A stretch of DNA of 38,724 bases from Gemmatimonadota bacterium (GTDB lineage Bacteria > Gemmatimonadota > Gemmatimonadetes > Gemmatimonadales > GWC2-71-9): the NCBI GenBank assembly GCA_016180765.1, contig JACPAP010000232.1:1-38724 (forward strand). Direction: 5' to 3'. Position numbers and translations under genes: made by a program. Positions 15,913 through 33,177 of this stretch are shown here, one piece after another. The stretch's first letter is position 1. Every line of letters starts with the position of its first letter. Below the pieces are notes generated by a model that made no database searches, was not told the DNA's origin, and was given only the letters and a program-made list of their open reading frames with translations.

Positions 15913-15989
15913 GGGGACAGCTTAGCGCAGCGCCGCCAACGCCGTCAGGTCGGCCCGCCCTCCGTCCTTCAACGATCCGGAGTCGCCGG

Positions 15990-16445
15990 CTACGACTTCC
16001 CGTTCCCGCCCGGCGCCAGCATCTCCGCCAGCGCGTCCAGCCGCTCGGTCCAGTACTGCTTCATCCGGTTGGCCGCCTCCTTGCTTTGCAGCTTCCGGTG
16101 CTGGACCGCCACCTGGGCCTTGGACCGTGCCGTCTTCCCAGGTGATGTGGATGTACTTGTTGGGCGTCGCACTCCGCACCGCGAGCGTCACGTCCGGAAG
16201 CCATTGCGACTGCAGGCGCGGCTGGCTGAACGCCCGGTACAGCTTGGTGAGTGAGACCGGCAACGTGCGGCTCTTGCTGGCCTCGTACTCGCCCGAGCGC
16301 CGCTGGCCCTGCTCCCGTAAGCCCTTGATGCGCTGGTAACCCACCGTCACCGTCTGGGCCCACCAGCCGTCAATGCAGTATACGCCTCGCCCGTCTTCCG
16401 CATGCGGGCGCGAACCAGGCGCTTGAAGTCTTTGTTGGTAGGCAT
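15990..16445 (-). pseudogene. decayed SRPBCC/DUF4287-associated-type gene (two frame switches)
   Basis: ATG 16445 gives MPTNKDFKRLVRARMRKTGEAYTA, and then a stop follows. A second frame gives IDGWWAQTVTVGYQRIKGLREQGQRRSGEYEASKSRTLPVSLTKLYRAFS...ITWEDGT. A third frame gives ARSKAQVAVQHRKLQSKEAANRMKQYWTERLDALAEML-stop at 15990. Confidence 0.5.
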
Positions 16446-16662
16446 CGTTGCGTTCCTTTGCGCTCTGGCCACGGCCAATTGCCCCCCAGCAGCGACTTGA
16501 CCGCGGCGACGCAAAGGTTCCCCGCAGAGCGATCCGGGAGTTTGCCCCCCTTTGCCTCTACCAAGGACCCTCGCTGGGGGAGGGCCGAAAGAGGTTGGGC
16601 GTGGATCACCGCCCGCGCTACTACGATGCGGCGGCCGGCCGGGCGGCGCAAGAGGGGTCTGG

Positions 16663-16971
16663 CTAGCGAGACTTCCGATGGGCCTGCACGTAGGCCCGGA
16701 GCACGGCGTTCATCCGGGTCTGGTAGCCGGGGCCCAGCCGCTTAAACCAGTCCAAGACTTCGCGGTCCAGGCGGATGGACACGGCGACCTTGGGCTCCGG
16801 CAGCACGATGCGGGCCTGCTTGAACCACTCCGCGTCCAACAACGGCGCCGCGTCCGGATCTTCGGCCACGGCCTTGGCGATGTCTTCGTCGGTGAGCGCG
16901 TCAACCCGGGCCCAATCGGTCTTCCCCTTGCGATCCCGGCGGGAACGCCTGACGATACGTCGCTCGTTCAC
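16663..16971 (-). CDS. brnA: BrnA-family antitoxin
   Basis: TDWARVDALTDEDIAKAVAEDPDAAP...VSIRLDREVLDWFKRLGPGYQTRMNAVLRAYV is the BrnA signature. Confidence 0.8.
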   Translation of the reverse strand: MNERRIVRRSRRDRKGKTDWARVDALTDEDIAKAVAEDPDAAPLLDAEWFKQARIVLPEPKVAVSIRLDREVLDWFKRLGPGYQTRMNAVLRAYVQAHRKSR

Positions 16972-17215
16972 GTCTGCTCGCCCTCCGCGCTGAAATGATT
17001 CGCCGGTTCCGGCCTCGCGGCGGGTAAACTACAGCGGTCACTCTCTCATCCGCGATTCCGATCGCGAGGAACCGGACCTCCCCGGACGGCTTCTGTGGGA
17101 CCGCCGGTTCCAGAACGGGACCGTCGAACACGCCAATGGCGTCGTCGAAGTCGATCCCGTGCTTAGCGAGATTCGCCGCGTTCTTCTGTGGGTCCCACTC
17201 GAAACCACGGAACAT
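16901..17215 (-). CDS. brnT: BrnT-family (DUF497) toxin
   Basis: The internal ATG at 17215 gives MFRGFEWDPQKNAANLAKHGIDFDDAIGVF...RIISARRASRRERATY. The 3' tail overlaps brnA by 71 nt, which is longer than usual. Confidence 0.8.
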   Translation of the reverse strand: MFRGFEWDPQKNAANLAKHGIDFDDAIGVFDGPVLEPAVPQKPSGEVRFLAIGIADERVTAVVYPPRGRNRRIISARRASRRERATYRQAFPPGSQGEDRLGPG

Positions 17216-17219
17216 GAAT

Positions 17220-17232
17220 ATACGATTCGTAT
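17220..17232. promoter_or_regulatory. palindrome ATACGA-T-TCGTAT immediately upstream of brnT start
   Basis: Read directly from the sequence. It lies 5-17 nt upstream of ATG 17215 on the minus strand. It is a plausible BrnA operator. Confidence 0.35.
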
Positions 17233-17445
17233 GTACAGAACGCCAGTGCCAGCCCGGGTGCGGCCTACGATCGCGCCTCCACGTTTCACCGGTATCACCG
17301 AAGTGATGCGCGACGGTTCCGGATATTGCGGGACTCCTATCACTAGTCGTCGTCCTCCCACGGCCGCCGGTCTGCCTCCTCCTTCTGGCGACGGGCCCGG
17401 CGGAACGCGCCGGCCGCCCCACCGCCGGGTCAAGAGGCGCGGCTC

Positions 17446-17462
17446 GCGTTTTTCTGCCTATG
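17446..17462. repeat. 17-nt direct repeat copy 2 (GCGTTTTTCTGCCTATG)
   Basis: It is identical to 2985-3001 and lies 51 nt upstream of ATG 17513. Confidence 0.85.
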
Positions 17463-17512
17463 CACTTCCAGCGGTCTCCCTTACGTTCGCTCGTTTCCTG
17501 GTGGAGCCACCA

Positions 17513-17962
17513 ATGAACACCCTCCGTTGGGACATCGGGCGCGCGGGCCGGGCCTGGACCGGGACGGAATCTCATGAGCGCGCCAATCGCCGCCCGGAGA
17601 AGCTGGAGATGTTCGAGGGGAAGCTGCTGTTGACCGACGAGGACCGGCTCAATCTGCTGGGGATGCTGCTGGAGAATGTCGGCGCCGATCAGGCGGTCCG
17701 CTTGGGCGATCCCAAAGTGTGGATCGATGCGGCGGAGACACTCAGGCCCGCCTGGGCTCGGCGCTCGTTCTTGGGCGACCGGTTCAACCGCTGGATGCTG
17801 ATGCTATGGTGCGTGAATCTTGTCGTCATCGCGGGCGTGGTGTTCATCGCCGTGCGCCGCCCCGAATTGCCACCACTGTCTCCTTCCGGGGAAGCCCTGC
17901 TCTTGTGCGCTCTCGTGGCCCTATGGACCTCGCTCGCGGTGAACGCGTTCCTCAAGCTGTGA
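17513..17962 (+). CDS. hypothetical protein with two C-terminal TM helices
   Basis: GGTGGAG lies 6 nt upstream of ATG 17513. The part of the track ORF upstream of this ATG looks non-coding. The C-terminus has WMLMLWCVNLVVIAGVVFIAV and ALLLCALVALWTSLAVNAFL. Confidence 0.5.
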   Translation: MNTLRWDIGRAGRAWTGTESHERANRRPEKLEMFEGKLLLTDEDRLNLLGMLLENVGADQAVRLGDPKVWIDAAETLRPAWARRSFLGDRFNRWMLMLWCVNLVVIAGVVFIAVRRPELPPLSPSGEALLLCALVALWTSLAVNAFLKL

Positions 17963-18005
17963 CCGAGTCGGAGCTGGTCCCACCGTCTAGAACTGTGTAG
18001 CTTAT

Positions 18006-18023
18006 TGTGTGATAGTACACACA
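18006..18023. promoter_or_regulatory. inverted repeat TGTGTG-ATAGTA-CACACA upstream of vapB
   Basis: Read directly from the sequence. It lies 16 nt upstream of ATG 18039 and is a plausible VapB operator. Confidence 0.3.
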
Positions 18024-18038
18024 TCCGGAGCATCCTCG

Positions 18039-18239
18039 ATGGCCACCAACCTCGCGATCGATCCCGCGTTGATTGACCGGGCCCTGGCGGTGAGCGGTGA
18101 GAAGTCCAAGAAGGCGGCGGTGACCAAGGCCTTGGAGGAGTTCATCGCCCGCCGAGAGCAGCGGCGGCTGCTCGAGCTATTCGGCAGGGTGGATTGGAAC
18201 CCGGACTACGATTACAAGGCCCAGCGGTCCCGCCGGTGA
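18039..18239 (+). CDS. vapB: VapB-type antitoxin (DUF2191-like)
   Basis: MATNLAIDPALIDRALAVSGEKSKKAAVTKALEEFIARREQRRLLELFG is the characteristic pattern. The internal ATG has CCGGAG 8 nt upstream. Confidence 0.75.
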   Translation: MATNLAIDPALIDRALAVSGEKSKKAAVTKALEEFIARREQRRLLELFGRVDWNPDYDYKAQRSRR

Positions 18240-18640
18240 ATCTGTTCGTGGACACCAGCGTCTGGTCGCTTGCTCTGCGACGCGACTCGCCGCCCTTGGC
18301 GCCCCACGTCGCGTTCGTCCGGAACGCGCTGGGGGCGGGTGACGCGGTGTTCACCACCGGTCTCGTCCTGCAAGAGCTGCTTCAAGGCGTCTCGGGACCC
18401 AAATTCCGTGAGGCCATCGTGCAGCGGTTCGCGGCCCTCCCGTTCCTGGTGCCTGAACGCGAGGATCACGTCAGGGCTGCCACCGTCCACACGGCGTGCA
18501 GACACAAGGGGATCCAGGTCACGACCATAGATACATTGCTGGCGGCGCTCTGCATCCGGCATGGTCTGACTATGTTGTCCACGGACCAGGACTTGGCGCA
18601 CATCGCCCGCATCGAGCCACTCAAGGTCTGGAAGCCGTGA
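18236..18640 (+). CDS. vapC: VapC PIN-domain ribonuclease toxin
   Basis: The GTG start overlaps the vapB stop as GTGA. The acidic PIN residues are in FVDTSVW, LQELLQG, TTIDTLLAA and STDQDL. Confidence 0.8.
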   Translation: MNLFVDTSVWSLALRRDSPPLAPHVAFVRNALGAGDAVFTTGLVLQELLQGVSGPKFREAIVQRFAALPFLVPEREDHVRAATVHTACRHKGIQVTTIDTLLAALCIRHGLTMLSTDQDLAHIARIEPLKVWKP

Positions 18641-18712
18641 GATCTGGATGCGTGAAGCGCGGCAGCCACTGGCTGCCGCGCTTCGTGATGCGGGGAGGAG
18701 CGAGCCCGGAAC

Positions 18713-21505
18713 CTACTGTGCCGCCACGCCCCGAATCTGCGTGGTACCCGCCAGGTAGATCCCGTTGAACAAGAACTTGAACGTCCCGTGCGGCTGGCCG
18801 CGGTTGGTGACCTCCGGGCCCAACAGATACAGCTGGCCCCGGCCCACCTTCGCCTCGGCCATCGCCACGCCACCTGCCAGATACTGCTGGCCCCAGGCCC
18901 AGCCGCTCCGGAGCGGCGCGTCACTGTCGAACCACGCTACCTGGTTCACGCCCTGCGCCATGGCGTCCGGCGACAGCTTCATTACCGGACTCTGGTCGAA
19001 GAACACGTCCACCCGCTCCGGCATCCCGTACGCGATGGGCCGAGTGTTATCCACCCGCACCTCCAGCACCGAGCCCGGCACGTAGAACTTGTCCTCCGGG
19101 AGCGGCTTTCCCGAGGCGTCCACCAGCTGGTTTCCGATGGGGAGGCCGGCATGTGCGCCCATGGCGATGGAGCTGCCGATGGCGATGATGGTGCCGCCGT
19201 CGGCCAGGAACTGCTTGAGTTGCGGCACCGTCTTGGCCACGGTCACGTGGCCCAGCCACCCGCGGAACTCCGGTGGAATGCTGGCGGCGTCAGGCTGCTG
19301 GCTCTCGCCACCACCGCCGGCGCGATCGGCCTCCGGAATCGCCTCGGTAGGGAAGATGAGCACGTCGTATTTCTTGGCGAGCTGACCAGCGTCGAGTGCC
19401 TGCGGCCAGAGGCGCTCGAAGGGGAACTCGTAGCGCTCCAGCAGCCAGCGGATCCAGCCCGACGGCATGGAGCCGCCATAGCGATCCCACAACGCCACCC
19501 GCACCGGTCGTATTCGCAGCGCGCCCACCTCCGGCCCCTTGGCCACGCCATCGAACCAAATCCCTAGCTCGGTGGCGAGCTGGTGGAGCACGGGCACCAG
19601 GCCCGACTTGGCCGGGATATAGACCGTGCCGGCCGGATAGGTCGTCCCGTTGGCCTGGAACGGCTCAGTGAGCCACTGCACCTCGTACTTCCTGGCCATC
19701 AGGCGATTGGTGGCCACGAAGCCGTCGTTGTACCCGTGGCTGAGCAGGAAGCCCTGGGCGCCCTGCACGCCGGCCACCATTCCCGCCGGCGGCTTCTGCA
19801 ACCCGGTGGTCTTGACGAACGGGCCGTCGAACCCGTCCAGGATGCGGTCGAACCTGACACCCATCTGATACGCCAGCGTGTAGCCCGCGTTGTCGTACGG
19901 CGGAATGGGCGGGCCGCCCTCGTAGGTGAAGTCGTTGGGATAATCCTGCGGCTCGAACATGTCCACCACGTGCGGCCGGAAGGCCTGCGCCGTCTTCACC
20001 ACGTACGAGTTCTCCGGGTACTGCTTGCCGCCCACCGTGAACGAGCTGGTGGCCTGGAGAATGGTGACGCCGTTCTTGACCAGCGTGTTCACGAACTTGA
20101 CCGCGGTGGGGAAGTCCGGTTGGTCCGACCGAATGATGTAGCCCCTGGGATCCCGGTTGGCGGGATCGCGCAGCATCTGGAAATACTTGGCCGGCACCTC
20201 GCGGCCGAAGCCGGGGAAACGCTCCGCGCCCAACCGCACCGCGGGATCCTTCGCCACCGCCGCCTTGACCGCGTCGATCAGCCGGGGGTGAACCGTCCAG
20301 GTGTCCCGGCTGCCGCGCTCGATGGAGCGCTTGCCCATGAGATACACGTTGTAGAGCAGCTTCGCCCGGTTGCGGGAGGCGTAGTCCAGCACCGCGCGGT
20401 TGGCGGTGATGGAGTAGTCAATGGACTGCCGGAAATGCCAGTTCTGCGTGGGCTCCACCGGCCACAGCAGGTCGCCGCTGGGTAGTTGGCGCTCGGGATA
20501 GAAGGGGATGGTCATGGGCGTGGGGCTCCCCTTGGTCTCCGTGAGCAGGCCGATCATGTTGTGGAAGTACGCGGTGGTCCTCAAGCCCCCGTTCCACCAG
20601 GTCTGGTAGCTGGCCCCTTTGCGCATGGTGGCGCCGGGCTTCGCTTCCGCGATGAAGCGCTCGTGCATCGCGGCGCCCACCCCGTCAATCTCCGCCATCA
20701 GGAGCGGGTCCAGATTGTAGTTGAACGGATCGCGGAACGGCGGCGCGAACAGGATCACGCCTTGCGGTCCGGTCTGATGGTGGTTGTAGAGGATCTGGGG
20801 CGACCACTCCAGGTAGAGCACCCGCGCCATGTTCTCGGTCTCGGGCTGGTTGACCATGTAGAAGTCGCGGTTGTTGTCGTGCCCGATGTACTTCTGGTAG
20901 AGGCGCGGAAGGCCTTCCATGGATCGCTTGAGCGGGTCGGCCTCGCGCATGTACCAGCCGGAGACCAGCTCCATGCCGTCCGGGTTGGCCTGCACCGCCA
21001 GCAAGACCACGTCGTTCAGGAAGCGCAGGGTCTCGGGGTCGGTGCGGCTCGCCATCTGATAGACCGTTTCCATCAGCTGGTGGGCGCCGAGCACTTCGGT
21101 GCCGTGGAGGCCGCCGTCAATCCAGACCACGGCTTTGCCCTCGTGCGCGAGTGCCGTGGCCTGGTCGTCCGTCAGTCCCTCGGCCAGCGCCAGGCGGCGG
21201 GAGATGTCCCGGTAGCGCGCCAGCCCGGCGTGGTTCTCGGGCGACGTGATGATGGCCATGAGCTGCGGCCGCCCCTCGGCGCTCTTCCCGATCTCCTGCA
21301 CCACCAGACGGTCCGACTCGGCGTCGAGCTTGCGCCAGTAGTCCGCCAGCTGGGTGTAGCTGGCGAGGAAATAGTCGTCGCCGATGTTGGAGCCGAACTG
21401 CTCTTTGGGGGTGGTGATGCGGGTCTGGGCCGCGGCGGGAACCGCGATGCCAACCGCCGCCATGAGGGCCAGCCCCATGACGCGGCCGCGACTGATGAGA
21501 ACCAT
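18713..21505 (-). CDS. large secreted M14-family zinc carboxypeptidase-like protein (paralog 1)
   Basis: ATG 21505 has AAAGGAGG 8 nt upstream, and the signal peptide ends AAAQT. Motifs are GGLHGTEVLG (HxxE), NPDG, YIGHDNNRD and NHHQTGP. Confidence 0.8.
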   Translation of the reverse strand: MVLISRGRVMGLALMAAVGIAVPAAAQTRITTPKEQFGSNIGDDYFLASYTQLADYWRKLDAESDRLVVQEIGKSAEGRPQLMAIITSPENHAGLARYRDISRRLALAEGLTDDQATALAHEGKAVVWIDGGLHGTEVLGAHQLMETVYQMASRTDPETLRFLNDVVLLAVQANPDGMELVSGWYMREADPLKRSMEGLPRLYQKYIGHDNNRDFYMVNQPETENMARVLYLEWSPQILYNHHQTGPQGVILFAPPFRDPFNYNLDPLLMAEIDGVGAAMHERFIAEAKPGATMRKGASYQTWWNGGLRTTAYFHNMIGLLTETKGSPTPMTIPFYPERQLPSGDLLWPVEPTQNWHFRQSIDYSITANRAVLDYASRNRAKLLYNVYLMGKRSIERGSRDTWTVHPRLIDAVKAAVAKDPAVRLGAERFPGFGREVPAKYFQMLRDPANRDPRGYIIRSDQPDFPTAVKFVNTLVKNGVTILQATSSFTVGGKQYPENSYVVKTAQAFRPHVVDMFEPQDYPNDFTYEGGPPIPPYDNAGYTLAYQMGVRFDRILDGFDGPFVKTTGLQKPPAGMVAGVQGAQGFLLSHGYNDGFVATNRLMARKYEVQWLTEPFQANGTTYPAGTVYIPAKSGLVPVLHQLATELGIWFDGVAKGPEVGALRIRPVRVALWDRYGGSMPSGWIRWLLERYEFPFERLWPQALDAGQLAKKYDVLIFPTEAIPEADRAGGGGESQQPDAASIPPEFRGWLGHVTVAKTVPQLKQFLADGGTIIAIGSSIAMGAHAGLPIGNQLVDASGKPLPEDKFYVPGSVLEVRVDNTRPIAYGMPERVDVFFDQSPVMKLSPDAMAQGVNQVAWFDSDAPLRSGWAWGQQYLAGGVAMAEAKVGRGQLYLLGPEVTNRGQPHGTFKFLFNGIYLAGTTQIRGVAAQ

Positions 21506-21648
21506 CGGTACCCCTCCTTTCAAAGAAGGTCCGGTTCGGGGAGGGGTTCACTAGGATAGGCCCCGGTACGGGGGAACGCCAGAAGCGCGCGTTGCGCCGG
21601 CGCTGGTGGGCGTGCATAATCGCCCGCGTCCGTCTTCCAGGCAGCGCC

Positions 21649-22818
21649 ATGCGTTGGACGCTCTGGGCCGTTCTCGTCACGCAAGTCGCCACGCCGGCTC
21701 TGGCGCAGCAATCCCAGACCGGCCTTGGCTGGTCCGCTCTTCCGGCGCTGAACTATGACTCCGACCAGGGGTTCGGCTACGGTGTCACCGGCGGGCTGTA
21801 CCAGTACGGCGACGGGAGCCAGCCGCCGTATCTCTGGGCCTTCGAGCCCATCGTCTTCTTCACCACGCGCGGCCGGCGCTCGGTCACGGTGTTCTACGAC
21901 GCCCCGCGACAATTCGGTGAGGCGGTGCGGCTCACGGTGCGGGCCTACGTGGACCGCGACTGCTGCCAGCCGTACTTCGGCCTGGGGAACGCGTCGGCCT
22001 ACGACGCGGCCCTGACCACGCGCCCGTCGCTGCCCGACTATTACACCTACCGAAGGAACCGCGCGGTGGCGGTGGTGGATCTTCAGTGGCGGGTGCTGCC
22101 ACGGGTGCGCCTGCTCACCGGCGTGGCGGTGAACCGCAACGCCACCGCCGCCCGGGATCCCAGCACCCAGTTCGCGGTGGACCTCGGCAACGGCACCATC
22201 CCTTCCGGCGAGGACGCGTCCACGTCACTCGGCCCCAAGGTCGGACTGGTGTATGACACCCGCGACCTGGAGCGTGACCCGCGGCGCGGCATGTGGCTCG
22301 AGGGCATCGCCTGGCAGGGCGTGGTGCTGCCCGGCGGCGACGACTTCACCCGCTGGACCGGCACGCTCCGCGGCTACCTGAGTCTGGATCCGTCGCTCAC
22401 CGTCGCGGCCCGCGTGTTCGGCGAGCACATCGAGGGCGCGATGCCCGTCGCGATGCTGTCGGACCTGGGCTCGTCGTTCCAGGACTTCGGCGGGCTGGGC
22501 GGCGCGGAGTCGGTGCGCGGGGTGTTGTGGCAGCGGTTCCTGGGGCGGACCAGGGCGTTGAGCAACCTGGAGGTCCGCTGGCGGGGTCCGGGCTTCCGCT
22601 TCCTGGGCGCGCCGTGGCAGCTCGGTGCGGTGGGCTTCGTGGACGCCGGGCGCGTGTGGGACGATCGTGGGGCGGGCGACGGTGCGGCCGGGCTGCACTG
22701 GGGGAAGGGCGGGGGGCTTCGCGTGGCGTGGGGTCAGTCGTTCATCATCGCGGCCGATTTTGGCCACGGCCGCGAAGCCGGGCTCCAGACCTACCTCAAG
22801 CTCGGCCACATGTTCTAG
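21649..22818 (+). CDS. Omp85/surface-antigen (D15)-type outer-membrane beta-barrel, no obvious POTRA
   Basis: The signal peptide is MRWTLWAVLVTQVATPALAQQ. The body has alternating beta-strand-like patterns and aromatic girdle residues. The C-terminus ends YLKLGHMF, the terminal-Phe beta-signal. Confidence 0.65.
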   Translation: MRWTLWAVLVTQVATPALAQQSQTGLGWSALPALNYDSDQGFGYGVTGGLYQYGDGSQPPYLWAFEPIVFFTTRGRRSVTVFYDAPRQFGEAVRLTVRAYVDRDCCQPYFGLGNASAYDAALTTRPSLPDYYTYRRNRAVAVVDLQWRVLPRVRLLTGVAVNRNATAARDPSTQFAVDLGNGTIPSGEDASTSLGPKVGLVYDTRDLERDPRRGMWLEGIAWQGVVLPGGDDFTRWTGTLRGYLSLDPSLTVAARVFGEHIEGAMPVAMLSDLGSSFQDFGGLGGAESVRGVLWQRFLGRTRALSNLEVRWRGPGFRFLGAPWQLGAVGFVDAGRVWDDRGAGDGAAGLHWGKGGGLRVAWGQSFIIAADFGHGREAGLQTYLKLGHMF

Positions 22819-23105
22819 GCGGCCAGCCCCGCCGACCCGCGGCTCTGAATCGCTAGACGCTCCTCCACCTTTCTTCGCCCTCTGCGGTGATCTGTTGCTC
22901 GCGGGCGCTCGAATGGGTAATGAAGGGAGGCCCCTGGGATCTGGCCCCGGCTTCCGCCCAGAACCTGAGTTGCCGCGAGCGGATTCAGCGAGAATTGCGG
23001 GTTGGACCCCAGCGTCGCGCCGCAGGCCTGTTTGGCCATGGCGGGGTACAGGGAGGGGTCAAGCGGGCATCCAAGAGGCGCCCGTGGCCCCTTCTCCAGA
23101 CCAAA

Positions 23106-23143
23106 TGTCCCCAAAACGCAGGTCGGGTGTCCCAAGAACGCAG
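23106..23143. promoter_or_regulatory. two 16-nt direct repeats (TGTCCCCAAAACGCAG / TGTCCCAAGAACGCAG), 22 nt centre to centre
   Basis: Read directly from the sequence. They lie 53-90 nt upstream of the first gene of the patatin/CHAT cluster, inside a 377-nt intergenic region. Confidence 0.3.
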
Positions 23144-23195
23144 TAGCGGGCGCGGGCGGATTCGCCAGATTAGAAGCACCCCTACCGGAGCCCTC

Positions 23196-23729
23196 ATGCA
23201 GGCGGGGAGCAGCCCCTCCGGCTCGCACCGCATTGGCCGGGTCGTCGCGTACACCACCATCGTGGTGCTCGCGGCGGCGGTGGCTTTCGTCTGGCTGTTG
23301 CTCTCCCTTCCCGCGGCGCACCCCGCCGCCGGCGAGGTCAGTCCTGACGATCTCGCCCTGCGCGCCCTGTTCGCCCGCACCACGGCCGTGATGTTCGTGG
23401 CCGGGGTGATGGGCGCGTGCCTCTACAACTTCCGGGGTCTCTCCAAACACTCCGCTTCGGGCGACTACCACGTGAACTACGATCTGTCGTACTTCCTGCG
23501 CCCCCTGGCCGGCGGGATCAGCGGGCTGATCGTGTTCTTCCTGCTGTTGGGCGGCGCGATGACGCTGAACGTCGGCACGCAGGAGGGGAACCTGGCGTGG
23601 GCCACGCTGCTGGGCCGGATGCCGTACATCGCGTTCTCGTTGCTGGCCGGGTACGGGTCGCACGAGTTCATGCTCAAGCTCAAGGACCTGGCGGACTCGT
23701 TGTTTGCGTTGAAAGACAAGGAGGAGTGA
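23196..23729 (+). CDS. small 4-TM membrane protein
   Basis: The internal ATG 23196 has CCGGAG 5 nt upstream. There are four hydrophobic helices: VVAYTTIVVLAAAVAFVWLLL, TAVMFVAGVMGACLY, LAGGISGLIVFFLLLGGAM and MPYIAFSLLAGYG. It ends in a charged tail, LKDLADSLFALKDKEE. Confidence 0.55.
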   Translation: MQAGSSPSGSHRIGRVVAYTTIVVLAAAVAFVWLLLSLPAAHPAAGEVSPDDLALRALFARTTAVMFVAGVMGACLYNFRGLSKHSASGDYHVNYDLSYFLRPLAGGISGLIVFFLLLGGAMTLNVGTQEGNLAWATLLGRMPYIAFSLLAGYGSHEFMLKLKDLADSLFALKDKEE

Positions 23730-23801
23730 GTCACGTCTGATCCCTCCATCCGCCAGCTCACGCCCGTCGAGGACGCCGAGAATCCCGAGTATCCGGCGGC
23801 C

Positions 23802-26274
23802 TTGAGGGAACGGGAGCGGTCCCTGGCTAAGCCGGAGCGCCGCTGGAAGGTAGGCTTGGCCTGTTCCGGCGGCGGCATCCGGAGCGCCACCTTCTGCCTG
23901 GGCTTCTTCCAGGGCCTGGCGCAGCACGGCCTGCTGCGCTATGTGGATTATCTCTCCACCGTCTCCGGCGGCGGCTACTTCGGCTCGTTCCTGGGCAGGC
24001 TCTTCTGCCGCGACAACCCGAGCCAGCGCCCGGAGGAGGTGCTTAAGGACTCCCAGTCTTCGCCCATCCGGTTCCTCCGCGAGAACGGGCGCTATCTGGC
24101 GCCCACCGGCACCGGCGACTTGCTCAAAGGAGCCGCGGTCGCCGCGCGGAACTGGGTCTCGGTGCACGTGGTGATGATCGTCTCGTGCCTCTTCGTGCTC
24201 TGCGTCTTCGAACTGATGGCGTACCTCGCGCTGCGGCCTCTGCCGGGCGAGGTGTTGCGCGTATTCGCGTTCCAGGGCGTGTGGGTGAGCCCGTTCCTGG
24301 CCGCGTTGTGCGCCGGCGCCTTGGTGGCGGTGATAGCCCTGGGCTGGGCGTACTGGCTGGTCCCCGACGCCGACCCGGGGAGCGGACGGATTCGCGGTGT
24401 GTTGCGCGTCGGGGTGGTCGCGCTGGCGGTCCTGGTCGCCGGCTGGTTCATCCGCCAGGGAATGGTCCTGGCGATCGCGTGGCCCGTGGCGATCACGGCC
24501 GGCGCCACGCTGGTAGCCTACGTCCTTGGCTGGGCGTGGGTCGCCCTGCGGCAACCGCGCGCGGGAGAGGCCGGGGCCGGCGGGGACGTGCAGGCGCTGC
24601 GGGCCGGCTTCACCCAGTGGCTCACACAGGCGCTGGTGGTGTTCGGCGTGTTCGTGGCGTTGGGCGCGGTAGACATGGTCGGGATGCTCTTGCTGCTCGG
24701 GCCGCCGGTCCGGATCCCCACGGTATACGCCGCGGTCGCCGCTATCGCGGGCGCCGTCCGGCCGCTGCTCCAGCGGTTCCTGCAGCAGAACGGGAAACCG
24801 GTGCGCTTGCCCTACGCGCTGGTGGCCGGCGCCGTGGCGTTCCTGTTGCTCTTCGCAATCCTCGGCGTGCTGGCCACGGTGCCGCATTACCTGGCCTGGG
24901 CCGGGCGCCTGGACGACGTGCGGACCTGGGATCCGCCCTGGCCGGTGGTGCTCGCGCGCCAGCTCGACCTGACTCGGCTGGTGTGGGTCACTGCCGGCCT
25001 CGGGCTCCTGGCGTGGGCGATGGGCCGGATGTTGATCTTCGTGAACCGCTCGTCGCTCTACGCGGTCTACGAGGCGCGGCTCAGGCGGGCGTACCTCGGC
25101 GCGTCGAACCCCAAACGGTTGGGCGACGAGCGGGGACCCATTCCGCTCGCCGAGAGCCATCCGGATGATGGTATCGCGCTGGCGCAGTACCACCCCGAGG
25201 AGTTGGGCGGGCCGGTGCACCTCATCAACGTCACCGTGAACGAGACGATTGACGGGCGCTCGCAGGTGGAGCAGCGAGATCGGAAAGGGGTCTCGCTCGC
25301 GATCGGGCCGGGCGGGGTGAGCGTGGGGCTTCGGCATCATGCCGTCTGGGACGCGGCGGCGAAGGCCGGGCTCTGGACCCGCGCGGTCCACTGGATGATG
25401 GCTCCGGTGGCACGGTCCCGCCCCGGGCGCTTCCGGGTGTTTCCGACCGCGGCGGTACCCGAGCAGCTCGGCGTCAGCGAATGGGTGGCGATATCGGGTG
25501 CCGCGTTCAGCACCGGCTTGGGCGCGCGCACCTCGTTTGGGCTGAGTGTCCTCGCGGGGTTGGCCAACGTGAGGTTGGGTTACTGGTGGAACAGCGGGAT
25601 TGCGCCGCAGGACCGGGCCGGGCGATCCCGGCGCAGCATCACCACGTGGCTGGGGTTCACGCTGCGCCACGTGCTGCCGGTGCAGGGGTTCCTGCTGGAC
25701 GAGTGGCTGGCGCGGTTCCACGGCGTGGCCCTGGAGCAGTGGTATCTCACCGACGGCGGCCATTTCGAGAACACGGCGGTCTACGAGCTGATCCGGCGGC
25801 GGTTGCCGTTCATGGTGGTGTGCGATTGCGGGGCGGACCCGGAGTACGGCTTCGAGGATCTGGGCAACCTGGTGCGGAAGGCGCGGGTGGATTACGGGGC
25901 GGAGATCCGGTTCCTGGATCGCGCGGGGCTCGACGACCTGAAGCTTGCCGCTGAGCTGCGCCCAACGATCGGCCCGCTCGAGGGCGTGAGCCCTCGCAGC
26001 GCCGCCGGCGGCGCCAGCCCGCGGTCTTCGGCTCACGCGGCGCTGGCGGAGGTGCAGTATGCCGGAGGCGGCCGCGGGTGGTTGCTGCTGGTCAAGCCGA
26101 GTCTCACGGGCGACGAGCCGGTGGACGTGGCGCAATACCAGGCGGATCATCCCAGGTTTGTGGGAGAGCTACCGCTGCCTGGGCGAGCACATCGGGTCGC
26201 AGGTGTTCCAGCGGGGTGGGGCGGGGACCTGGAGTCCGGCGGGGGAGATGGTGGGGGAGGTGGGGCAGGCGTGA
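23802..26274 (+). pseudogene. polytopic patatin-like phospholipase (about 8 TM helices inserted between catalytic Ser and Asp); C-terminal frame switch at 26160
   Basis: The oxyanion motif is CSGGGIRS, the nucleophile motif is TVSGG, and the Asp motif is YLTDGGHFEN. The start is TTG 23802. After ...QADHPRF (ends 26159) GC3 collapses in this frame. The next frame, from 26161, reads WESYRCLGEHIGSQVF... with high GC3 and stops at 26272-26274. Confidence 0.7.
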
Positions 26275-26482
26275 GCTGGCCGGTGGCGATCGTGTTGGTG
26301 ACGCGGCGTTCCGCGGAAAACGCCCTATCGGCGGCTTCAGGGATAATCAGTAGAATAGCCCACGAAACCCCGGGTTGCCCGGCCCCTCGCCGCCGGCACA
26401 CTTGCCACATGACGAAGGTTGGTATCGGCTCTGCCCTTCCGTCCTTCGGGGGCGCTGCCAGCCGACCAGCCAGGAGGGGAAA

Positions 26483-27019
26483 ATGTCGCTGCGGGTCTGC
26501 TTGAGTCGCGTAATCGGGAGCTGGCTTTTCCTTCTTCCGGCGGGAGCCTGGGGTCAGGCTCCGCCTCCACCCCAGTTGCGCGCCGACATTACGTCGCTCG
26601 TTCAATCCGGTCCCTCGCTCCTGGGAACCGCCACACCGGATGAGCGCCGCCGGTTTGTCCTCAAAGCCGCCGGGCTGCTGCAGCAGCTGCCTGATTCCAC
26701 CCGCGGTGGCACGGTGGTGGGTTCGGTGGAGGACGCGGTTCGCGAGTTGGAGAACGCGCTGGCGGCCTTTGGGCAGGCCTCGGCCGAGGTGCGGTCCGAG
26801 CCACCGGGGATGACGGTGCGGTACTGGCGGGCTTTCGATACGCGTGAGGCGGCCGCGAGCGTTACGACCAACGCGACGCTCCGCGTCCGCCCAGCGTGGT
26901 ACCTATTCGTGTGCCGCGACCCCGCCACCGGTCGGGAATCGGAGCCCGAACGGGTGGACTGCACGTCTCGATGTACCCACGTGTGCAGCCCCTTGAGGCA
27001 GCCGGGAGCCATGAATTGA
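26483..27019 (+). CDS. secreted hypothetical protein (signal peptide, Cys-rich C-terminus)
   Basis: AGGAGGGG lies 4 nt upstream of ATG 26483. The signal peptide is MSLRVCLSRVIGSWLFLLPAGAWGQA. The C-terminus has VDCTSRCTHVC. No family was recognised. Confidence 0.6.
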   Translation: MSLRVCLSRVIGSWLFLLPAGAWGQAPPPPQLRADITSLVQSGPSLLGTATPDERRRFVLKAAGLLQQLPDSTRGGTVVGSVEDAVRELENALAAFGQASAEVRSEPPGMTVRYWRAFDTREAAASVTTNATLRVRPAWYLFVCRDPATGRESEPERVDCTSRCTHVCSPLRQPGAMN

Positions 27020-27591
27020 TGGCCGACCCGACCACCCCACTCTCCGAGATCGCCAAGGGGATTCCCAAGTCCCAGGCGGCGGTCGGGGCTGCCGCGGCCA
27101 TCTCGATGCTGTTCCTTCCGGACCGGCTCATTCCGGAACAGCTCTCCATCCTGCGCCCTGCCTCCTCGATCATCGTCGTCCTATCCGTGATCCTGGCGTG
27201 GGTCTTCCAGCGCTGGTTGAGCCGCAGGCTCGGAGTCGTCGCGCTGGTTGCCGTGGTGATGTTGGTTCTCTTGATCCTCGGTCAGGTCGCGTTCGTGGTG
27301 GAGCTGTCGGCGGTCGGCGATCCCCCGGAGACCCACTACTACCTCGTCGGGACCAGCCTGACGGATAACGGCCGGGCGTGGGCTGGACAACTCGGCGTCG
27401 CCAGCGCCCCGCGCGAGGTTCAGGTGCTGCGCGTGGGCCCGGACGCGATCCCCGGCATGTACGGTGCCAGCTACTTCGCGGTGGCCGCCGCATACACCTT
27501 GAGTACGGTCACCTTTCTCTTGGCCAGCGTGCTCGCGATTGCGGCGGCGCAGCTCAAGCGTCGCGCCCTCGCCAAGCCCGGCGGACCATGA
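27019..27591 (+). CDS. membrane protein, 3-4 TM helices
   Basis: The ATG overlaps the previous stop (TGATG). Hydrophobic segments are SIIVVLSVILAWVF, VVALVAVVMLVLLILGQVAFVV and YFAVAAAYTLSTVTFLLASVLAIAAA. Confidence 0.6.
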   Translation: MADPTTPLSEIAKGIPKSQAAVGAAAAISMLFLPDRLIPEQLSILRPASSIIVVLSVILAWVFQRWLSRRLGVVALVAVVMLVLLILGQVAFVVELSAVGDPPETHYYLVGTSLTDNGRAWAGQLGVASAPREVQVLRVGPDAIPGMYGASYFAVAAAYTLSTVTFLLASVLAIAAAQLKRRALAKPGGP

Positions 27592-30329
27592 GGGAGGCCG
27601 TCCTTTGGTTGGCTTTGATCGCCGCAGACGCTCCTCGGCTCGCGGCTCAGGAGGTCGCGTCGGTCGCGCGGGACAGCGCGCGCCACTACGATCTCGAAGC
27701 GCAGGCGGTGCGACGTTCTGCGCTGCCCGGGTCCAGCGAGAAGGCTCTGGCGCTCACTCAGCGGGCGTTGGCGCTGTATCGAGGCGCCGGTGATGCCGTC
27801 GGGGAGGGGCGGATGCTCAGTCGCATCGGGGCGCTGTATTGGGATCTTGAGGACGGGCCACTCGCCCTGGCGCACCTGGATAGCGGCCTGACCCTGCTTC
27901 GCGCCGCGGGGGACCGCGCCAACGTGGGACGCACGTTGCTCAACCTCGGGAACATCCACCTCGCTAACCAGGAGTTAGGGCCAGCGTTGGCGGCGTACAG
28001 CGAGGCGCTCCAGGCCGCGCGCGAGGTGCGCGATACGGAAGACGAGGCGCTCGCGCTCTTCAACCTGGGGTGGCTGTTCCAGGTACGCGCCCGTCGGGAG
28101 TTCTCCGGTGAGCTCTATGACTCCTCTGCTGGCTTCTACCGCCAAGCAGCCCAACGCGCCGGCATAGCGGACACCGCCATGCAGGGCCTCGTGCTGTATG
28201 GGCTCGGGAGTATCCATGAAGATCGGTCTCAACTCGATTCGGCGCTGGCCCTCTACGCGGCTGCACTCCTGGTGCAAGACGCGGCGCGTGCTCGATCCCG
28301 CGTCGCCAGGACGCTCTATGCTCTGGGGAGCGTGTACGCGTCGCTCGGTCGTGCGGAGGTAGCCTTGCGGTATCTGCGTCGCGCCTCTGCGACCTACCAC
28401 GACCTGGGCGACGCCTCGGGCCAGGTGATGGCGGATACGAAGATCCAGGCGGTGCAGTACGGCATGGTCGGAGATCTGCTTGGCCGGGGTCTGGCCGACT
28501 CGGCGCTGGCGGTGCTCCAGCGGGCCACGGCGGAGGACACGGCTGCGCCGGCCGCGGAGCGGGCCATAGACCTCATCCTGGAATCGGACATCATCCGCGA
28601 AGCGATACGCAGGATGCCGGATGCCGAAGCGTTTCTGAGGTACGTGTCGCAACCCGACACCGCGGAGCCTTCCCGCTCTTCTGCGAGGGCTTTGCTGTTG
28701 CTGGCGCGTGCGCAAAACGATCGGCGGACGGAGGCCGATGCGCTCTTCGCACTGGGAGACCGTTGGCTGGAAGACGGCGCGGTGGACTCAGCGGCGGTTT
28801 GTTATGACTCCGCGTTGGCGCTGTACCGGGGAACTCGCGATCGGTTTGGCGAGGCGAAGACGCTGTACCGCCGGGGGTGGATGCGACATCGGACTGGGGC
28901 TGGGCCTGACCTCGCGGTCGCCGTTGCCCTCTACGATTCGGCTTCGCGAGTTCGCGCGCGGTTGGCGGGTGTGGCCGGGGATGATCCTAACCGCGTGAGC
29001 CTGCGCGAGCAGGACTTCGAGCTTTACGGGACCTGGGCCCTTGCCTGGTTGGCCAGGGCGGGCGAAGTAGGAGAGCGTCGCGCCAGGCTCGCGGCGCTCG
29101 CGGCCGCCGAACGGGGGCGGGCTCAGGCGCTCTTGACTCTCCGGAACGCGTCTGACACGGCCGGTGGTAGCGGGCTCGCGGATGAGGGTGCGCGCCTCAT
29201 GGAAACGCTCGCTTACAGCGAGGCGGTTTGGCTCTCGTACCTTCTCGCCGAAGACACGCTGGTGATCTGGGTGGCCCGGCCCGGCTCGCAGGTTCTCGTG
29301 GTCAGGGTCCCGGTGCTGCGGGCATCGACGGTTCAGAGCTTCGATACCGTCCCCCCCGTACTCAGCGCCCGAGGCCGATGGATGTCCGCACGTGACTCCC
29401 TCTCGCGCCTGGTTCAAGCCCTGCGCGCAGCGCTTGAGTCGCCCGGTGGGGAAGACGTGGCGCCCCGGGCCGCCGCGGTGGCCGCAGTGGTGATGCCGCC
29501 GGAGGTGCGCGCAGCGTTGGCGAGCGCGCGGGAGCTAGTCGTCGTCCCGTTCGGTCCGCTCGGCCTGGTTCCGTTTGCGGCGCTCCCCCTCGGTGATGAC
29601 GGACCGCTCAGTGCGAGATACGCGGTCCGGTATGCGCCGTCACTCTCCACCGCGGCGGCGCTCAAACACCCCGTGGCATCGTCGAGGTCGCGGCAGAGCT
29701 TGGTCCTGGGCAATCCGACGACCGGCCTGGTGCTCGAGGTGGTGACGGGTGGGGTCATCGTGCTGAAACGACTTCCCGGCGCCGAGCGGACCGCGACGTG
29801 GCTCGGAGAACTGCTCCACTCGCCGCCGCTGGTCGCAGCCGCTGCGACCGAGTCCGCGGTTCGCTCGCGGATCGGAACGGCCGACCTCGTGCACTTTGGG
29901 ACCCACGGATACAGCTACGCCACGGCGGAGCTCGCCCGCGAGTCGTTCCTCGCCCTGGCCCCAGATAGCGTGAACGAGGGAGTGCTCACGGCGGCTGAGA
30001 TTCTGGACTCCCTGCCTCCACTCCGGGCCGAGCTGGTAGTGATGAGCGGCTGCGTTACGGCGCTCGGCGACGTGCGGGAGGCGGAGGGGGTTGTGGGCCT
30101 GGCTCGGGCCTTCCTGGCCAAGGGGGCCAGGGCCGTGCTGGTAAGTCTCTGGGACGTCAACGATGCGGTGACCGCGGAGCTCGAGCAGGCGTTCTACCGT
30201 GAGTGGCTGGGCGTAGAGTCAGGGGCCGCTCCGGGGAGAGGCGAGGCACTTCGGCGTGCGCAGGAGTCGATCCGTGGGCGCCACCCGCACCCGTACTACT
30301 GGGCGGGGTTTCAGCTCGTCGGACAGTAA
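27588..30329 (+). CDS. secreted TPR-repeat protein with C-terminal CHAT (caspase-fold) protease domain
   Basis: The ATG overlaps the previous stop (ATGA), and the signal-like N-terminus ends LAAQE. There are many TPR-like units (ALALTQRALALYRGAGD, GRTLLNLGNIHL, ...). The CHAT dyad context is LVHFGTHG and LVVMSGCVT. The family-typical end is HPYYWAGFQLVGQ. Confidence 0.85.
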   Translation: MREAVLWLALIAADAPRLAAQEVASVARDSARHYDLEAQAVRRSALPGSSEKALALTQRALALYRGAGDAVGEGRMLSRIGALYWDLEDGPLALAHLDSGLTLLRAAGDRANVGRTLLNLGNIHLANQELGPALAAYSEALQAAREVRDTEDEALALFNLGWLFQVRARREFSGELYDSSAGFYRQAAQRAGIADTAMQGLVLYGLGSIHEDRSQLDSALALYAAALLVQDAARARSRVARTLYALGSVYASLGRAEVALRYLRRASATYHDLGDASGQVMADTKIQAVQYGMVGDLLGRGLADSALAVLQRATAEDTAAPAAERAIDLILESDIIREAIRRMPDAEAFLRYVSQPDTAEPSRSSARALLLLARAQNDRRTEADALFALGDRWLEDGAVDSAAVCYDSALALYRGTRDRFGEAKTLYRRGWMRHRTGAGPDLAVAVALYDSASRVRARLAGVAGDDPNRVSLREQDFELYGTWALAWLARAGEVGERRARLAALAAAERGRAQALLTLRNASDTAGGSGLADEGARLMETLAYSEAVWLSYLLAEDTLVIWVARPGSQVLVVRVPVLRASTVQSFDTVPPVLSARGRWMSARDSLSRLVQALRAALESPGGEDVAPRAAAVAAVVMPPEVRAALASARELVVVPFGPLGLVPFAALPLGDDGPLSARYAVRYAPSLSTAAALKHPVASSRSRQSLVLGNPTTGLVLEVVTGGVIVLKRLPGAERTATWLGELLHSPPLVAAAATESAVRSRIGTADLVHFGTHGYSYATAELARESFLALAPDSVNEGVLTAAEILDSLPPLRAELVVMSGCVTALGDVREAEGVVGLARAFLAKGARAVLVSLWDVNDAVTAELEQAFYREWLGVESGAAPGRGEALRRAQESIRGRHPHPYYWAGFQLVGQ

Positions 30330-30501
30330 GGTGGGGAGCCGACGGGGTCTCTTCAGGACGCACGGGGAGCCGTGACCTGCGTTGGTTCGTCGTCCCTCGT
30401 TCGCCGTTGACACACTGACCCCCCCGCGTCACCTTCGCCCGGTCACCTGGTTTTTCAGTCTGACGCCACGCCCCGCATACTGCCGTCCCAGGGAGTGCCG
30501 T

Positions 30502-33177
30502 ATGAAAAGGAATAGCCACCCGCTCCGCTCTGTGTTCATCCTGTTGGCGATCGCGTCGGTCCATTCAGCCGTCGTCCAGGCCCAGCAGCTGACCAGCCCC
30601 GAGCAGTTCTTCGGTTTCCCCATGGGCGCCGATCGCAAGCTCGCCCGCTGGGACAAGCTGGTGGAGTACTACCACCTGCTGGATCGTCAGAGCGACCGCA
30701 TGCAGGTGGTGAACCTGGGCCCCACCACCATGGGCAACCCGTTCCTGGTCCTGTTCATCTCCTCGCCTCAGAACCTCGCGCGGCTGGATGAATTCCGGCA
30801 GATGAACGCCAAGCTCAGTGATCCGCGCGGCGTATCCGAGGACGAGATCCGGCGCATCGTGGCCAACGGGAAAGCCGTCGTGGTTCAGTCCTTTGGACTC
30901 CACTCGTCCGAGGTGGCCGCCAGCCAGACGGCCGCCGAGCTGATGTACGACCTGCTCCGCCGCACGGACGACGAGACCCAGCGCATCATGGATCACGTGA
31001 TCGCCATCATGATCCCGTGCTTCAACCCGGACGGCGAGATCCTGGTCACCGACTGGTACAACAAGTACGTGGGCACCGAGTACGAGGGCGTGGGCTTGAA
31101 CGTGCTCTACCACAAGTACGTGGGCCACGACAACAACCGCGACGCGTTCATGACCAACATGGTGGAGTCCCAGTACGCGGCCAAGATCCTGTTCCGCGAC
31201 TGGATTCCCCAGGCCTACATCGACCACCACCAGATGGGGCCTTACGGCGCCCGCATCTACGTGCCCCCTTATGCCGAGCCCATTCGGCCCGAGAGCGATC
31301 CCCTGGTGTGGCGCGAGATGAGCTGGTGGGGTGCGCACATCGCCTATAAAGAGGAAGAGGCCGGACTGAACGGCGTGGTGAACGCCGCCATCTACTCCGG
31401 CTGGGGCCACTTCGGGTTCCACTGGATCACGCCGTTTCACAACATCGCCGGCATGCTGACCGAGTCGGCCAGCGCGCGACTTGCGTCGCCGCTCTATCTG
31501 CATCCCGATCAGGTCCGCGGCGGAGCGCGCGGCCTGCCCGAGTACGAGGCACAGACCACCTTCCCCAACCCCTGGCCCGGCGGCTGGTGGCGGGTACGCG
31601 ACATCGTGGAGCGGCAGAAGGTCGCCGCCTGGGCCGCGGTGGATCTCGCGGCGCGGAATCGCGAGACGGTTCTGTGGAACGCCTATCTCAAGGCCAGGCG
31701 GCAGACCGAGCGGGGCGCGGCCGGGACCATCGCCGGGACCGTGGCGTACCTCATTTCCGCCGAGCAGCACGACCCGCTCACGGCCACCAAGCTGGTCAAT
31801 AAGCTGCTGGTGCAGGGCATCGAGGTACAGCGTGCCTCGGCCGAGTTTACCCACGAGGGCAAGGTGTACGGCGCGGGCTCGTTCGTGGTCTCTATGGCGC
31901 AGCCCAAGGCCGGCGTGATCCGTTATCTCCTGGGCCGCACCTTCTATCCCGACAACAGCTACACCCGCGACAGCCAGGGCAATCCCATTCGCCCCTATGA
32001 CATGTCGGCCGACGTGATGGCCGAGTTCATGGGCCTGCGGGTGGACGCGGCAGCAGCGGCAGTGGCCGCGGAAGCGGCAGGGCTAGCGACGGTCGCGGCG
32101 GCGATCGAGCCCGCGGGCAAAGTCACCAAGGGGGCCAACGGCTACATGATTGACGGCTGGTTGAACGACGCCTTCCGCGCGGTGAACCTGTTGTGGGACA
32201 GGAATGTCAGAGTCCGTCGCGTGAGCCGGGCGGCCGCGGGTGTTCGGCCGGGCGATTTCGTCGTGACCGCCGCGCCCGACGCAACCGTCCAGGATATCGC
32301 GCGGCAGACCGGCGTGGACTTCGGCGCACTGGCCAGCGACGTCACCCAATCCAGCTACGACGTGCGGCGCCTCCGCATCGGTATGTACCAGCGTTACTAC
32401 GGCGGCAACATGGACGAAGGGTGGACCCGCTGGCTGCTGGAGCAATGGGGCTTCCCGTACAAGTCCCTGTTCGACGCCGAGATCAAGGCCGGGAACCTGG
32501 CGGCCAAGTACGACGTGATCATCCTGCCGGACGACAACGTGCGGATGATCACGGGAGACCGCGCACCTCCAGGCGCCGCCGCTGGTGGAGGTGGCTTCGG
32601 CGGACAGCAACCCGAGCCGCCGCCGGAATTCCGGAGCGGTATCGGCGCCGAGGGCGTCACGGCACTCAAGCAATTCGTCCAGAGCGGCGGGACGGTGGTG
32701 ACGTTCGGCGAAGCGGGCGAGTTTGCCATCGAGAAGCTTGAGGTGCCGATTCGCGACGTGGTGGCCAACCTGCCCACCAAGGAGTTCTGGTCTCCCGGCT
32801 CCACGCTCCGGATCCACGTGGACACCGCCCACCCGCTCGCCTTCGGCATGCCGGAGCAGGCGCTGGCCACGTTCCTCCAGGGCAACCACGCGTACGAGGT
32901 CGTCCCCACGGCCACGAATGAGAAGGTGGAACGGATCGCCACGTTCGTGGACCGGGACCTTCTCCAAAGCGGGTGGCTGCTGGGAGAAGACCGGATCGCC
33001 AAGAAGGCGGCCGTGGTCGCCGTGCAGCAGGGGCAGGGCAAGGTGGTGATGATCGGCTTCCGGGCTCAGCACCGCGCCCAGACGCACGGCACCTTCAAGC
33101 TGGTGTTCAACACGCTGGTGAGCGGGCCGGAGGGGCGCGCGGCCGCAGCGGCGGGTCTGAGCCAGGCAGGGCGGTAG
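30502..33177 (+). CDS. large secreted M14-family zinc carboxypeptidase-like protein (paralog 2)
   Basis: GGGAG lies 6 nt upstream of ATG 30502, and the signal peptide ends VQAQQ. Motifs are FGLHSSEVAA (HxxE), NPDG, YVGHDNNRD and DHHQMGP. It is colinear with 18713-21505. Confidence 0.8.
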   Translation: MKRNSHPLRSVFILLAIASVHSAVVQAQQLTSPEQFFGFPMGADRKLARWDKLVEYYHLLDRQSDRMQVVNLGPTTMGNPFLVLFISSPQNLARLDEFRQMNAKLSDPRGVSEDEIRRIVANGKAVVVQSFGLHSSEVAASQTAAELMYDLLRRTDDETQRIMDHVIAIMIPCFNPDGEILVTDWYNKYVGTEYEGVGLNVLYHKYVGHDNNRDAFMTNMVESQYAAKILFRDWIPQAYIDHHQMGPYGARIYVPPYAEPIRPESDPLVWREMSWWGAHIAYKEEEAGLNGVVNAAIYSGWGHFGFHWITPFHNIAGMLTESASARLASPLYLHPDQVRGGARGLPEYEAQTTFPNPWPGGWWRVRDIVERQKVAAWAAVDLAARNRETVLWNAYLKARRQTERGAAGTIAGTVAYLISAEQHDPLTATKLVNKLLVQGIEVQRASAEFTHEGKVYGAGSFVVSMAQPKAGVIRYLLGRTFYPDNSYTRDSQGNPIRPYDMSADVMAEFMGLRVDAAAAAVAAEAAGLATVAAAIEPAGKVTKGANGYMIDGWLNDAFRAVNLLWDRNVRVRRVSRAAAGVRPGDFVVTAAPDATVQDIARQTGVDFGALASDVTQSSYDVRRLRIGMYQRYYGGNMDEGWTRWLLEQWGFPYKSLFDAEIKAGNLAAKYDVIILPDDNVRMITGDRAPPGAAAGGGGFGGQQPEPPPEFRSGIGAEGVTALKQFVQSGGTVVTFGEAGEFAIEKLEVPIRDVVANLPTKEFWSPGSTLRIHVDTAHPLAFGMPEQALATFLQGNHAYEVVPTATNEKVERIATFVDRDLLQSGWLLGEDRIAKKAAVVAVQQGQGKVVMIGFRAQHRAQTHGTFKLVFNTLVSGPEGRAAAAAGLSQAGR

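Follow-up and report, generated by a model that had tools for sequence, protein, structure and literature searches.

To our knowledge, little has been established about how bacteria detect attack on their envelope. TIR and SAVED-type CHAT domains are typical of immune effectors, and the cytoplasmic protease Csx29 of the type III-E CRISPR system binds Cas7-11/gRAMP and cleaves Csx30. TPR-CHAT proteases are already known, and one periplasmic case has been described: DdvA of Myxococcus xanthus is a membrane-tethered periplasmic TPR-CHAT anti-sigma factor that controls a defense island and is proposed to cleave itself on a phage-related cue, releasing an extracytoplasmic function (ECF) sigma factor that turns on a CRISPR island shared with a cyclic oligonucleotide-based antiphage signaling system (CBASS) (PMC11506125). 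Here we analyze a five-gene block in a stretch of 38,724 nucleotides (nt), hereafter the window, that makes up positions 1 to 38,724 of contig JACPAP010000232.1 from the Gemmatimonadota assembly GCA_016180765.1. The DNA has a G+C content of about 68%, and a protein search returned near-identical named proteins from Gemmatimonadetes metagenome-assembled genomes only. The block comprises a small membrane protein (g1), a polytopic patatin-like phospholipase, a secreted protein (g3), an inner-membrane protein (g4) and a TPR-CHAT protease (g5), which an earlier note, made from the sequence alone, had taken as possibly one regulated system in envelope conflict or cell death. Our comparisons indicate that the five open reading frames (ORFs) are not one system but three adjacent yet unrelated units, and that the last of these, g3-g4-g5, is a genuine conserved module, undescribed so far, as judged from gene order and protein architecture.

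Three units in a five-gene block

The five ORFs occupy positions 23196-30329, all on one strand. As originally observed, they are set off by gaps of 377 nt upstream, where the stop of an Omp85-family barrel gene lies at 22818 (NF047779, 258 bits), and 172 nt downstream, where the ATG of an M14 peptidase gene lies at 30502; the block is flanked by two M14 paralogues of about 30% identity in opposite orientation, M14(-) before it and M14(+) after it. Among relatives that differ from the window in gene content, the closest (L002/L003) has the order M14(-)–Omp85–patatin–M14(+). Its patatin and Omp85 are 79% identical to those of the window and its two M14 genes 86-88%, and a tblastn search found no trace there of g1, g3, g4 or g5. 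A blastn synteny map resolves the differences from L002 into three separate insertions/deletions (indels), which cover g1 (23180-23749), g3-g5 (26260-30571) and a YdjM-like gene (33238-34258). The patatin is part of the local conserved backbone M14–Omp85–patatin–M14, and the 208-nt spacer between its true stop and g3 (26275..26482) lies at the left edge of the 26260-30571 stretch missing from L002. We also sampled 80 patatin-family loci from other genomes, each kept with up to 10 kb of flank, and within that distance homologues of g1, g3, g4, g5, Omp85 and M14 were found in none of them. Because the backbone occurs without g1 and g3-g5 in L002/L003, none of the 80 patatin loci carries these genes and the relatives of g1 are solitary, a five-gene system is unsupported. 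The edges of the g3-g5 indel bear an imperfect 16-nt direct repeat, at 26284-26299 (TGGCGATCGTGTTGGT) and 30545-30560 (TGGCGATCGCGTCGGT), which could be coincidental or a scar of recombination. Promoter or terminator consensus sequences were not found in the spacer region, although such scans are uninformative at 68% G+C.

The three genes of the module are g3 (26483..27019, + strand; 178 amino acids [aa]), g4 (27019..27591, +; 190 aa) and g5 (27588..30329, +; 913 aa). As first reported, g3 is preceded by AGGAGG, a strong Shine-Dalgarno sequence, and the genes are coupled by start/stop overlaps, TGATG at 27017-27021 for g3/g4 and ATGA at 27588-27591 for g4/g5. An exhaustive HMMER search of protein representatives with a concatenate of g1, g3 and g4 gave roughly 440 matches in all and recovered a g3 family with at least 10 representatives at 50% clustering and a g4 family with 49 representatives among the best 150 matches; a metagenome scan with a seven-member g4 alignment returned one locus. 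In two of the proteins recovered, P0267 (1,099 aa) and P0268 (1,098 aa), a g4-type domain with four transmembrane (TM) helices is followed by one more hydrophobic helix and then by a TPR array with a CHAT domain; in P0267, the TPR-CHAT portion shares 40% identity with g5 across 897 residues. On the contig that encodes P0267 (L091), a g3-like gene (1676-2425) ends where the fused g4-TPR-CHAT gene (2425-5724) begins. A second, independent contig (L096) has a g3-like gene (846-1379), a g4-like gene (1406-2005) and then a partial gene of 144 aa whose product, read by eye, shows a signal peptide along with a helical region resembling repeats. Immediately upstream of P0268 and of P0280, a g4-like protein, there are also genes of the size of g3 (161 and 179 aa), the likeness here being one of size and position only. 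Further, the g4-type domain is fused to short CHAT domains, C-terminal in P0272, P0385 and P0386 and at the N terminus in P0380, and to a TIR domain in P0287; the CHAT and TIR parts of these fusions match the PADLOC models SAVED_CHAT, chat, SAVED_TIR and ThsB. On the basis of the codon overlaps between g3, g4 and g5, the recurrent order of g3-like and g4-like genes and the g4–TPR-CHAT fusions, the module is taken to be real; the idea of one regulated system, unsupported for five genes, is supported for these three alone.

As the earlier note had supposed, the small proteins belong to no named family: g1, g3 and g4 have no match in Pfam, NCBIfam or PADLOC, and no description of the g4-type domain was found in the papers searched. 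The g3 protein is predicted to be exported, its signal peptide ending in AWG with QA following. An AlphaFold model (pLDDT 86.5) has a helical N-terminal half, forming a small bundle, and a C-terminal beta-sandwich, for which a fold search gave generic Ig/FN3-like beta-sandwich matches only; the sandwich has two invariant cysteines, C160 and C164. The g4 protein is an inner-membrane protein of four helices. Positively charged residues in QRWLSRR, which lies between helices 2 and 3, and in the C-terminal KRRALAK place both of its termini, by prediction, in the cytoplasm and the loop formed by residues 95-150 (about 55 residues) in the periplasm. In the AlphaFold model (pLDDT 89.2, pTM 0.79) this exposed loop, which carries the conserved motif G-x-PP-x-T-x-Y-x-L-x-G, folds as a beta-hairpin with three short helices, and the model has no fold match in the PDB or BFVD.

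The g5 protein is a caspase-fold protease in which residues 628-913 match positions 4-289 of the 289-position CHAT model (PF12770) with 206.7 bits against a cut-off of 24 (E=6.7e-61), while the preceding array matches Pfam TPR_12. Its catalytic dyad, spotted beforehand by eye, is intact, and His773 in FGTHG and Cys822 in MSGCVT line up with the corresponding conserved residues in 15 relatives. The N terminus also bears out the first impression of a short Sec-type signal peptide, a brief hydrophobic stretch followed by RLAA and then QEV; the same pattern, A-x-A before Q, closes the signal peptides of the neighboring M14, Omp85 and g3 proteins, and the closest relatives of g5 all start with clear signal peptides. 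A signal-peptide-like helix ending in G or A before Q is moreover kept in mid-protein in P0267 (about residues 186-215) and P0268 (about 190-225), where signal peptidase might release the protease from the membrane module. As the g4 C terminus is predicted to be cytoplasmic and this helix is retained in the fusions, the TPR-CHAT part would lie outside the cytoplasm, either anchored or released. Together, the signal peptides and the fusions of four TM helices, helix and TPR-CHAT speak for an extracytoplasmic and perhaps membrane-tethered placement of the g5 protease. PDB sequence searches with the CHAT domain, and likewise with the patatin, gave nothing useful.

The closest relatives of g5 (on contigs L005 and L006) are secreted TPR-CHAT genes whose neighbors are small unannotated genes and genes for Ser/Thr protein kinases, one of which has a CHASE2 sensor domain and another BTAD; L005 carries a tandem pair of TPR-CHAT paralogues. 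The contig L091 has two more CHAT-domain genes on the other strand at 7528-13724 (773 aa and at least 696 aa), again among small unannotated genes, and looks like a cluster of CHAT modules.

The patatin, g1 and the surrounding region

The patatin gene (23802..26504, +) lies outside the module. Its three catalytic motifs were read correctly from the start, with SGGGIRS at residue 22, TVSGG at 53 and TDGG at 650, and all three fall in invariant columns of the family, TVSGG having Thr in place of the first Gly. The catalytic domain is split by an insert of about 300 residues that carries 8-9 hydrophobic TM segments between the Ser and Asp halves, in good agreement with the initial count of about eight, and a signal peptide is absent. 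The assumption that the gene is intact in the window did not hold: the TGA at 26272-26274, originally read as its stop, is not in frame from 23802, and the frame continues to 26504. Compared with a GenBank contig of assembly GCA_016182745.1 (L001), which has 99.5% DNA identity to window positions 13834-32025, exactly 41 nt are missing at 26159/26160. In L001 the patatin is intact, with 837 aa and the ending …ADHPRF-PQETTLDQFFDEAQ-WESYRCLGEHIG…GQA; without the deletion, the window gene would end at 26274. The 41-nt loss removes PQETTLDQFFDEAQ, a near-invariant C-terminal motif of the family in which F786 and P787 are invariant and T791, D793, Q794, F796, D797, A799, Q800, W801 and E802 are conserved at 90% or more, and it also shifts the frame. 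The window ORF scores 24.3 bits against Pfam PF01734, below the gathering threshold of 27.7, and matches with its N-terminal part only. Between the intact orthologues of L001 and L002, the ratio of nonsynonymous to synonymous substitution rates (dN/dS) is 0.24, and the gene is thus under purifying selection in this lineage.

A second frameshifting deletion relative to GCA_016182745.1, of about 31 nt at about position 16126, affects an AHSA1-like gene, and no obvious direct repeats are seen at either deletion junction. Both losses could be assembly errors or strain-level gene decay, which, given this second case at 16126, are indistinguishable without reads. At the other end of the patatin, the stop of g1 (TGA, 23727-23729) is in frame with the patatin ORF, and the conserved N-terminal peptide RQLTPVEDAENPEYPAAL lies between this TGA and the first canonical start, the TTG at 23802. 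The g1 indel ends about 12 nt past the position of the ATG used by the L002 orthologue; that ATG is missing in the window, and the true start codon of the patatin is therefore uncertain there.

The polytopic patatin family is large: clustering at 90% identity leaves more than 2,000 clusters, and a genome scan recovered at least 593 stretches of it in species-representative genomes. The 80 sampled loci come from Verrucomicrobiota, Acidobacteriota, Planctomycetota, Gemmatimonadota and Proteobacteria, and cultured Variovorax, Luteibacter, Rhodanobacter and Pseudomonas huaxiensis are represented in this sample. This distribution and the neighborhoods identify the patatin, as far as gene content can tell, as a widespread stand-alone polytopic lipase; a bacterial patatin with such a TM insert was undescribed in the papers found by our literature searches. 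An apparent universal neighbor, present as a cluster in 64 loci, proved to be an artefact of partial patatin ORFs, and Omp85 was discarded as a partner, being absent from all 80 family loci outside this lineage. A GMC-family oxidoreductase gene lies near the patatin homologue in 12 of the 80 loci (L009, L036, L042, L048, L050, L051, L052, L057, L058, L066, L072 and L077) and in 11 of these it immediately precedes the homologue on the same strand; in L051 the two are on opposite strands, with the oxidoreductase gene about 3 kb upstream, and in L048 a single open frame runs across both genes. In part of the family, the two genes may be functionally paired.

The first ORF of the block, g1 (23196..23729, +), encodes a 177-aa small membrane protein with three or four hydrophobic segments. 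Its family has at least 96 representatives among the best 150 matches of the exhaustive HMMER search, and the relatives whose surroundings we inspected (L090, L092 and L094) are solitary, with long intergenic flanks and in unrelated contexts. The longer members of the family have no informative extra domain, and a relationship between g1 and g4 as 4TM families was rejected (hhalign probability 0.6%). We accordingly view g1, from these contexts, as a solitary small membrane protein of a large uncharacterized family that is not part of the module.

Elsewhere in the window, positions 33188-34258 have no blastn counterpart in L002 and hold the gene for the YdjM-like membrane protein (33188-33850) and a tRNA gene (33999-34082). 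The toxin-antitoxin pairs BrnT/BrnA and VapB/PIN are found at about 16660-18640, a few kb upstream of the M14 gene, in a stretch not shared by L002, which suggests a variable region. On the minus strand, a 937-aa open frame at 8555-11368 combines a FAD-binding molybdopterin-dehydrogenase domain with a cytosine/purine permease and adjoins a xanthine-dehydrogenase-like gene (11340-14069); it probably represents two genes read through in high-G+C DNA.

Function of the module

We consider it probable that the block consists of three independent units, of which g3-g4-g5 is an accessory operon built around an extracytoplasmic caspase-like protease, with g4 as its dedicated partner in the inner membrane and g3 as a companion in the periplasm, whose output would be envelope surveillance or conflict; the assignment as an envelope-surveillance or conflict device, which draws on analogy, is made with moderate-to-low confidence. 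Starting from the gene order, fusions, export signals, intact dyad and indel status demonstrated here, we infer a trigger, a substrate and an outcome as follows. The TPR-CHAT protease would be held at, or controlled by, g4 by way of the periplasmic loop of the latter. The protease would be turned on when the TPR array or g3 binds a protein cue in the periplasm, and the CHAT domain, activated at g4, could then cut g4, g3 or another envelope protein and thereby convey a signal or damage across the inner membrane.

Several observations weigh against this picture. Few genomic contexts are readable, and the likeness to g3 of the genes upstream of P0268 and P0280 is unconfirmed. P0280, although g4-like, has no adjacent CHAT gene, and the closest stand-alone TPR-CHAT relatives adjoin Ser/Thr kinases rather than g3 or g4, so that the protease clade is not tied to the g4 membrane partner. 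PADLOC has no model that matches g3 or g4 and gives only a generic TPR model for g5, which is in keeping with the initial remark that no named system could be recognized. Hallmarks of mobile elements or phages were not seen flanking the module, and g4 searches of viral and plasmid collections found nothing.

That all five genes constitute one envelope cell-death system, with the TPR-CHAT protein controlling the patatin as effector and the small proteins assisting, now seems very improbable, the neighborhood data having largely refuted it. The five genes do lie close together on one strand in both the window and L001, and it is established that patatin and CHAT domains each occur in known defense systems; however, besides being free of g1 and g3-g5 in L002/L003 and of any of these four genes in the 80 family loci, the patatin is unmatched by tblastn in the g3-g4-CHAT contigs L091 and L096, matches no PADLOC model, the CapV type included, and has catalytic halves predicted to lie in the cytoplasm, whereas the protease is exported. 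The "lipase plus caspase" pairing is best regarded as an accident of gene order that should stay out of catalogues of defense systems. A more serious rival, though on balance an unlikely one, is that g3-g4-g5 is a housekeeping or signaling protease set of the envelope, serving in periplasmic processing, quality control or regulatory input without a role in conflict. Secreted TPR-CHAT proteins are abundant in genomes of the Acidobacteria and Gemmatimonadetes type, the close relatives of g5 have Ser/Thr kinases beside them, one with CHASE2, an ECF sigma gene lies near the g4-like gene that has no adjacent CHAT gene, and no defense database is matched, all of which fit such a role. The module is nevertheless missing from a close relative, hence dispensable, and its g4-type domain is fused elsewhere to TIR and SAVED-type CHAT domains.

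These same two features, the fusions of the g4-type domain to TIR and short CHAT and the status of the module as an indel between close genomes, are what hints at conflict, and the conflict or cell-death role put forward at the outset survives to that extent as an inference. In its strongest form, the g4-type 4TM domain, with its conserved periplasmic loop, would be an unnamed membrane sensor or transducer of immunity that links envelope events to CHAT proteases, whether periplasmic TPR-CHAT or cytoplasmic short CHAT, or to TIR NADases, and g3-g4-g5 a new periplasm-facing defense system; we regard this as a tentative and rather unlikely extension. Still more doubtful is a role for g4 as the executioner, in which cleavage of its periplasmic loop by the CHAT protease would lead to membrane disruption, as in protease-activated gasdermins. 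The tight coupling or fusion of g4 with CHAT proteases and the conserved motif of its exposed loop speak for this, but the g4-type domain, where fused to TIR or short CHAT, occupies the position that the SAVED sensor has in known proteins, which favors sensing or anchoring, and g4 has no structural likeness to gasdermin or any pore former. On the preferred reading, an accessory operon with an extracytoplasmic protease, the three-gene module is a modest but genuine lead and a testable entry point to the detection of envelope attack.

Comparison with known systems

With ExoU, PlpD and CapV (PF01734), the window patatin shares the motifs GGGxR, xxSxG and DGG, but it differs in its TM insert and in belonging to a stand-alone family that is linked neither to cyclases nor, outside this lineage, to Omp85. 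CBASS with a CapV effector was rejected on the grounds that the patatin has no PADLOC match and that no cyclase was found among the window ORFs scanned, as the earlier note had anticipated. Type Vd secretion of the PlpD kind was set aside too, the patatin having no signal peptide and 8-9 internal TM segments and its Omp85 neighbor occurring in this lineage only. A gasdermin with a caspase-like protease was likewise rejected: g3 and g4 match no PADLOC model and their structural models have no gasdermin matches, g4 being modeled as a helical 4TM protein and g3 as a helix bundle with a beta-sandwich.

The SAVED-CHAT and SAVED-TIR proteins of CBASS and type III CRISPR resemble the relatives of g4 in joining a regulatory domain to a CHAT or TIR effector. 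In the latter, however, the g4-type 4TM domain replaces the SAVED nucleotide sensor, and the protease of the window is a long secreted TPR-CHAT protein encoded by its own gene. The arrangement of a TPR array with a CHAT domain is shared with Csx29 of Craspase, which performs regulated, specific cleavage of a partner, whereas g5 is exported and scores 15.3 bits against the cut-off of 300 of NCBIfam NF041237; Cas genes were not found among the window ORFs scanned.

The nearest characterized analogue of g3-g4-g5 is DdvA. Both have a TPR-CHAT caspase-fold module with a His-Cys dyad which, for g5 by prediction, faces the periplasm and is attached to a component of the inner membrane, and for both a periplasmic protein cue and proteolysis at the membrane are proposed. 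They differ in that DdvA is a single polypeptide with a cytoplasmic zinc-binding anti-sigma domain and one TM helix, paired with the ECF sigma factor DdvS, whereas the membrane component of the module is a 4TM protein, either separate or fused, that lacks an anti-sigma domain, g5 begins with a signal peptide and there is a third, secreted protein, g3; a sigma-70 or ECF gene was not found among the window ORFs scanned. New are the partnership of g3 with g4 and the repeated occurrence of the g4-type domain in fusions with CHAT and TIR; if the interpretation is correct, this would be a new membrane domain that recurs with effectors of both kinds. Should the module indeed sense periplasmic events, it would provide a second and architecturally different case of extracytoplasmic CHAT signaling after DdvA.

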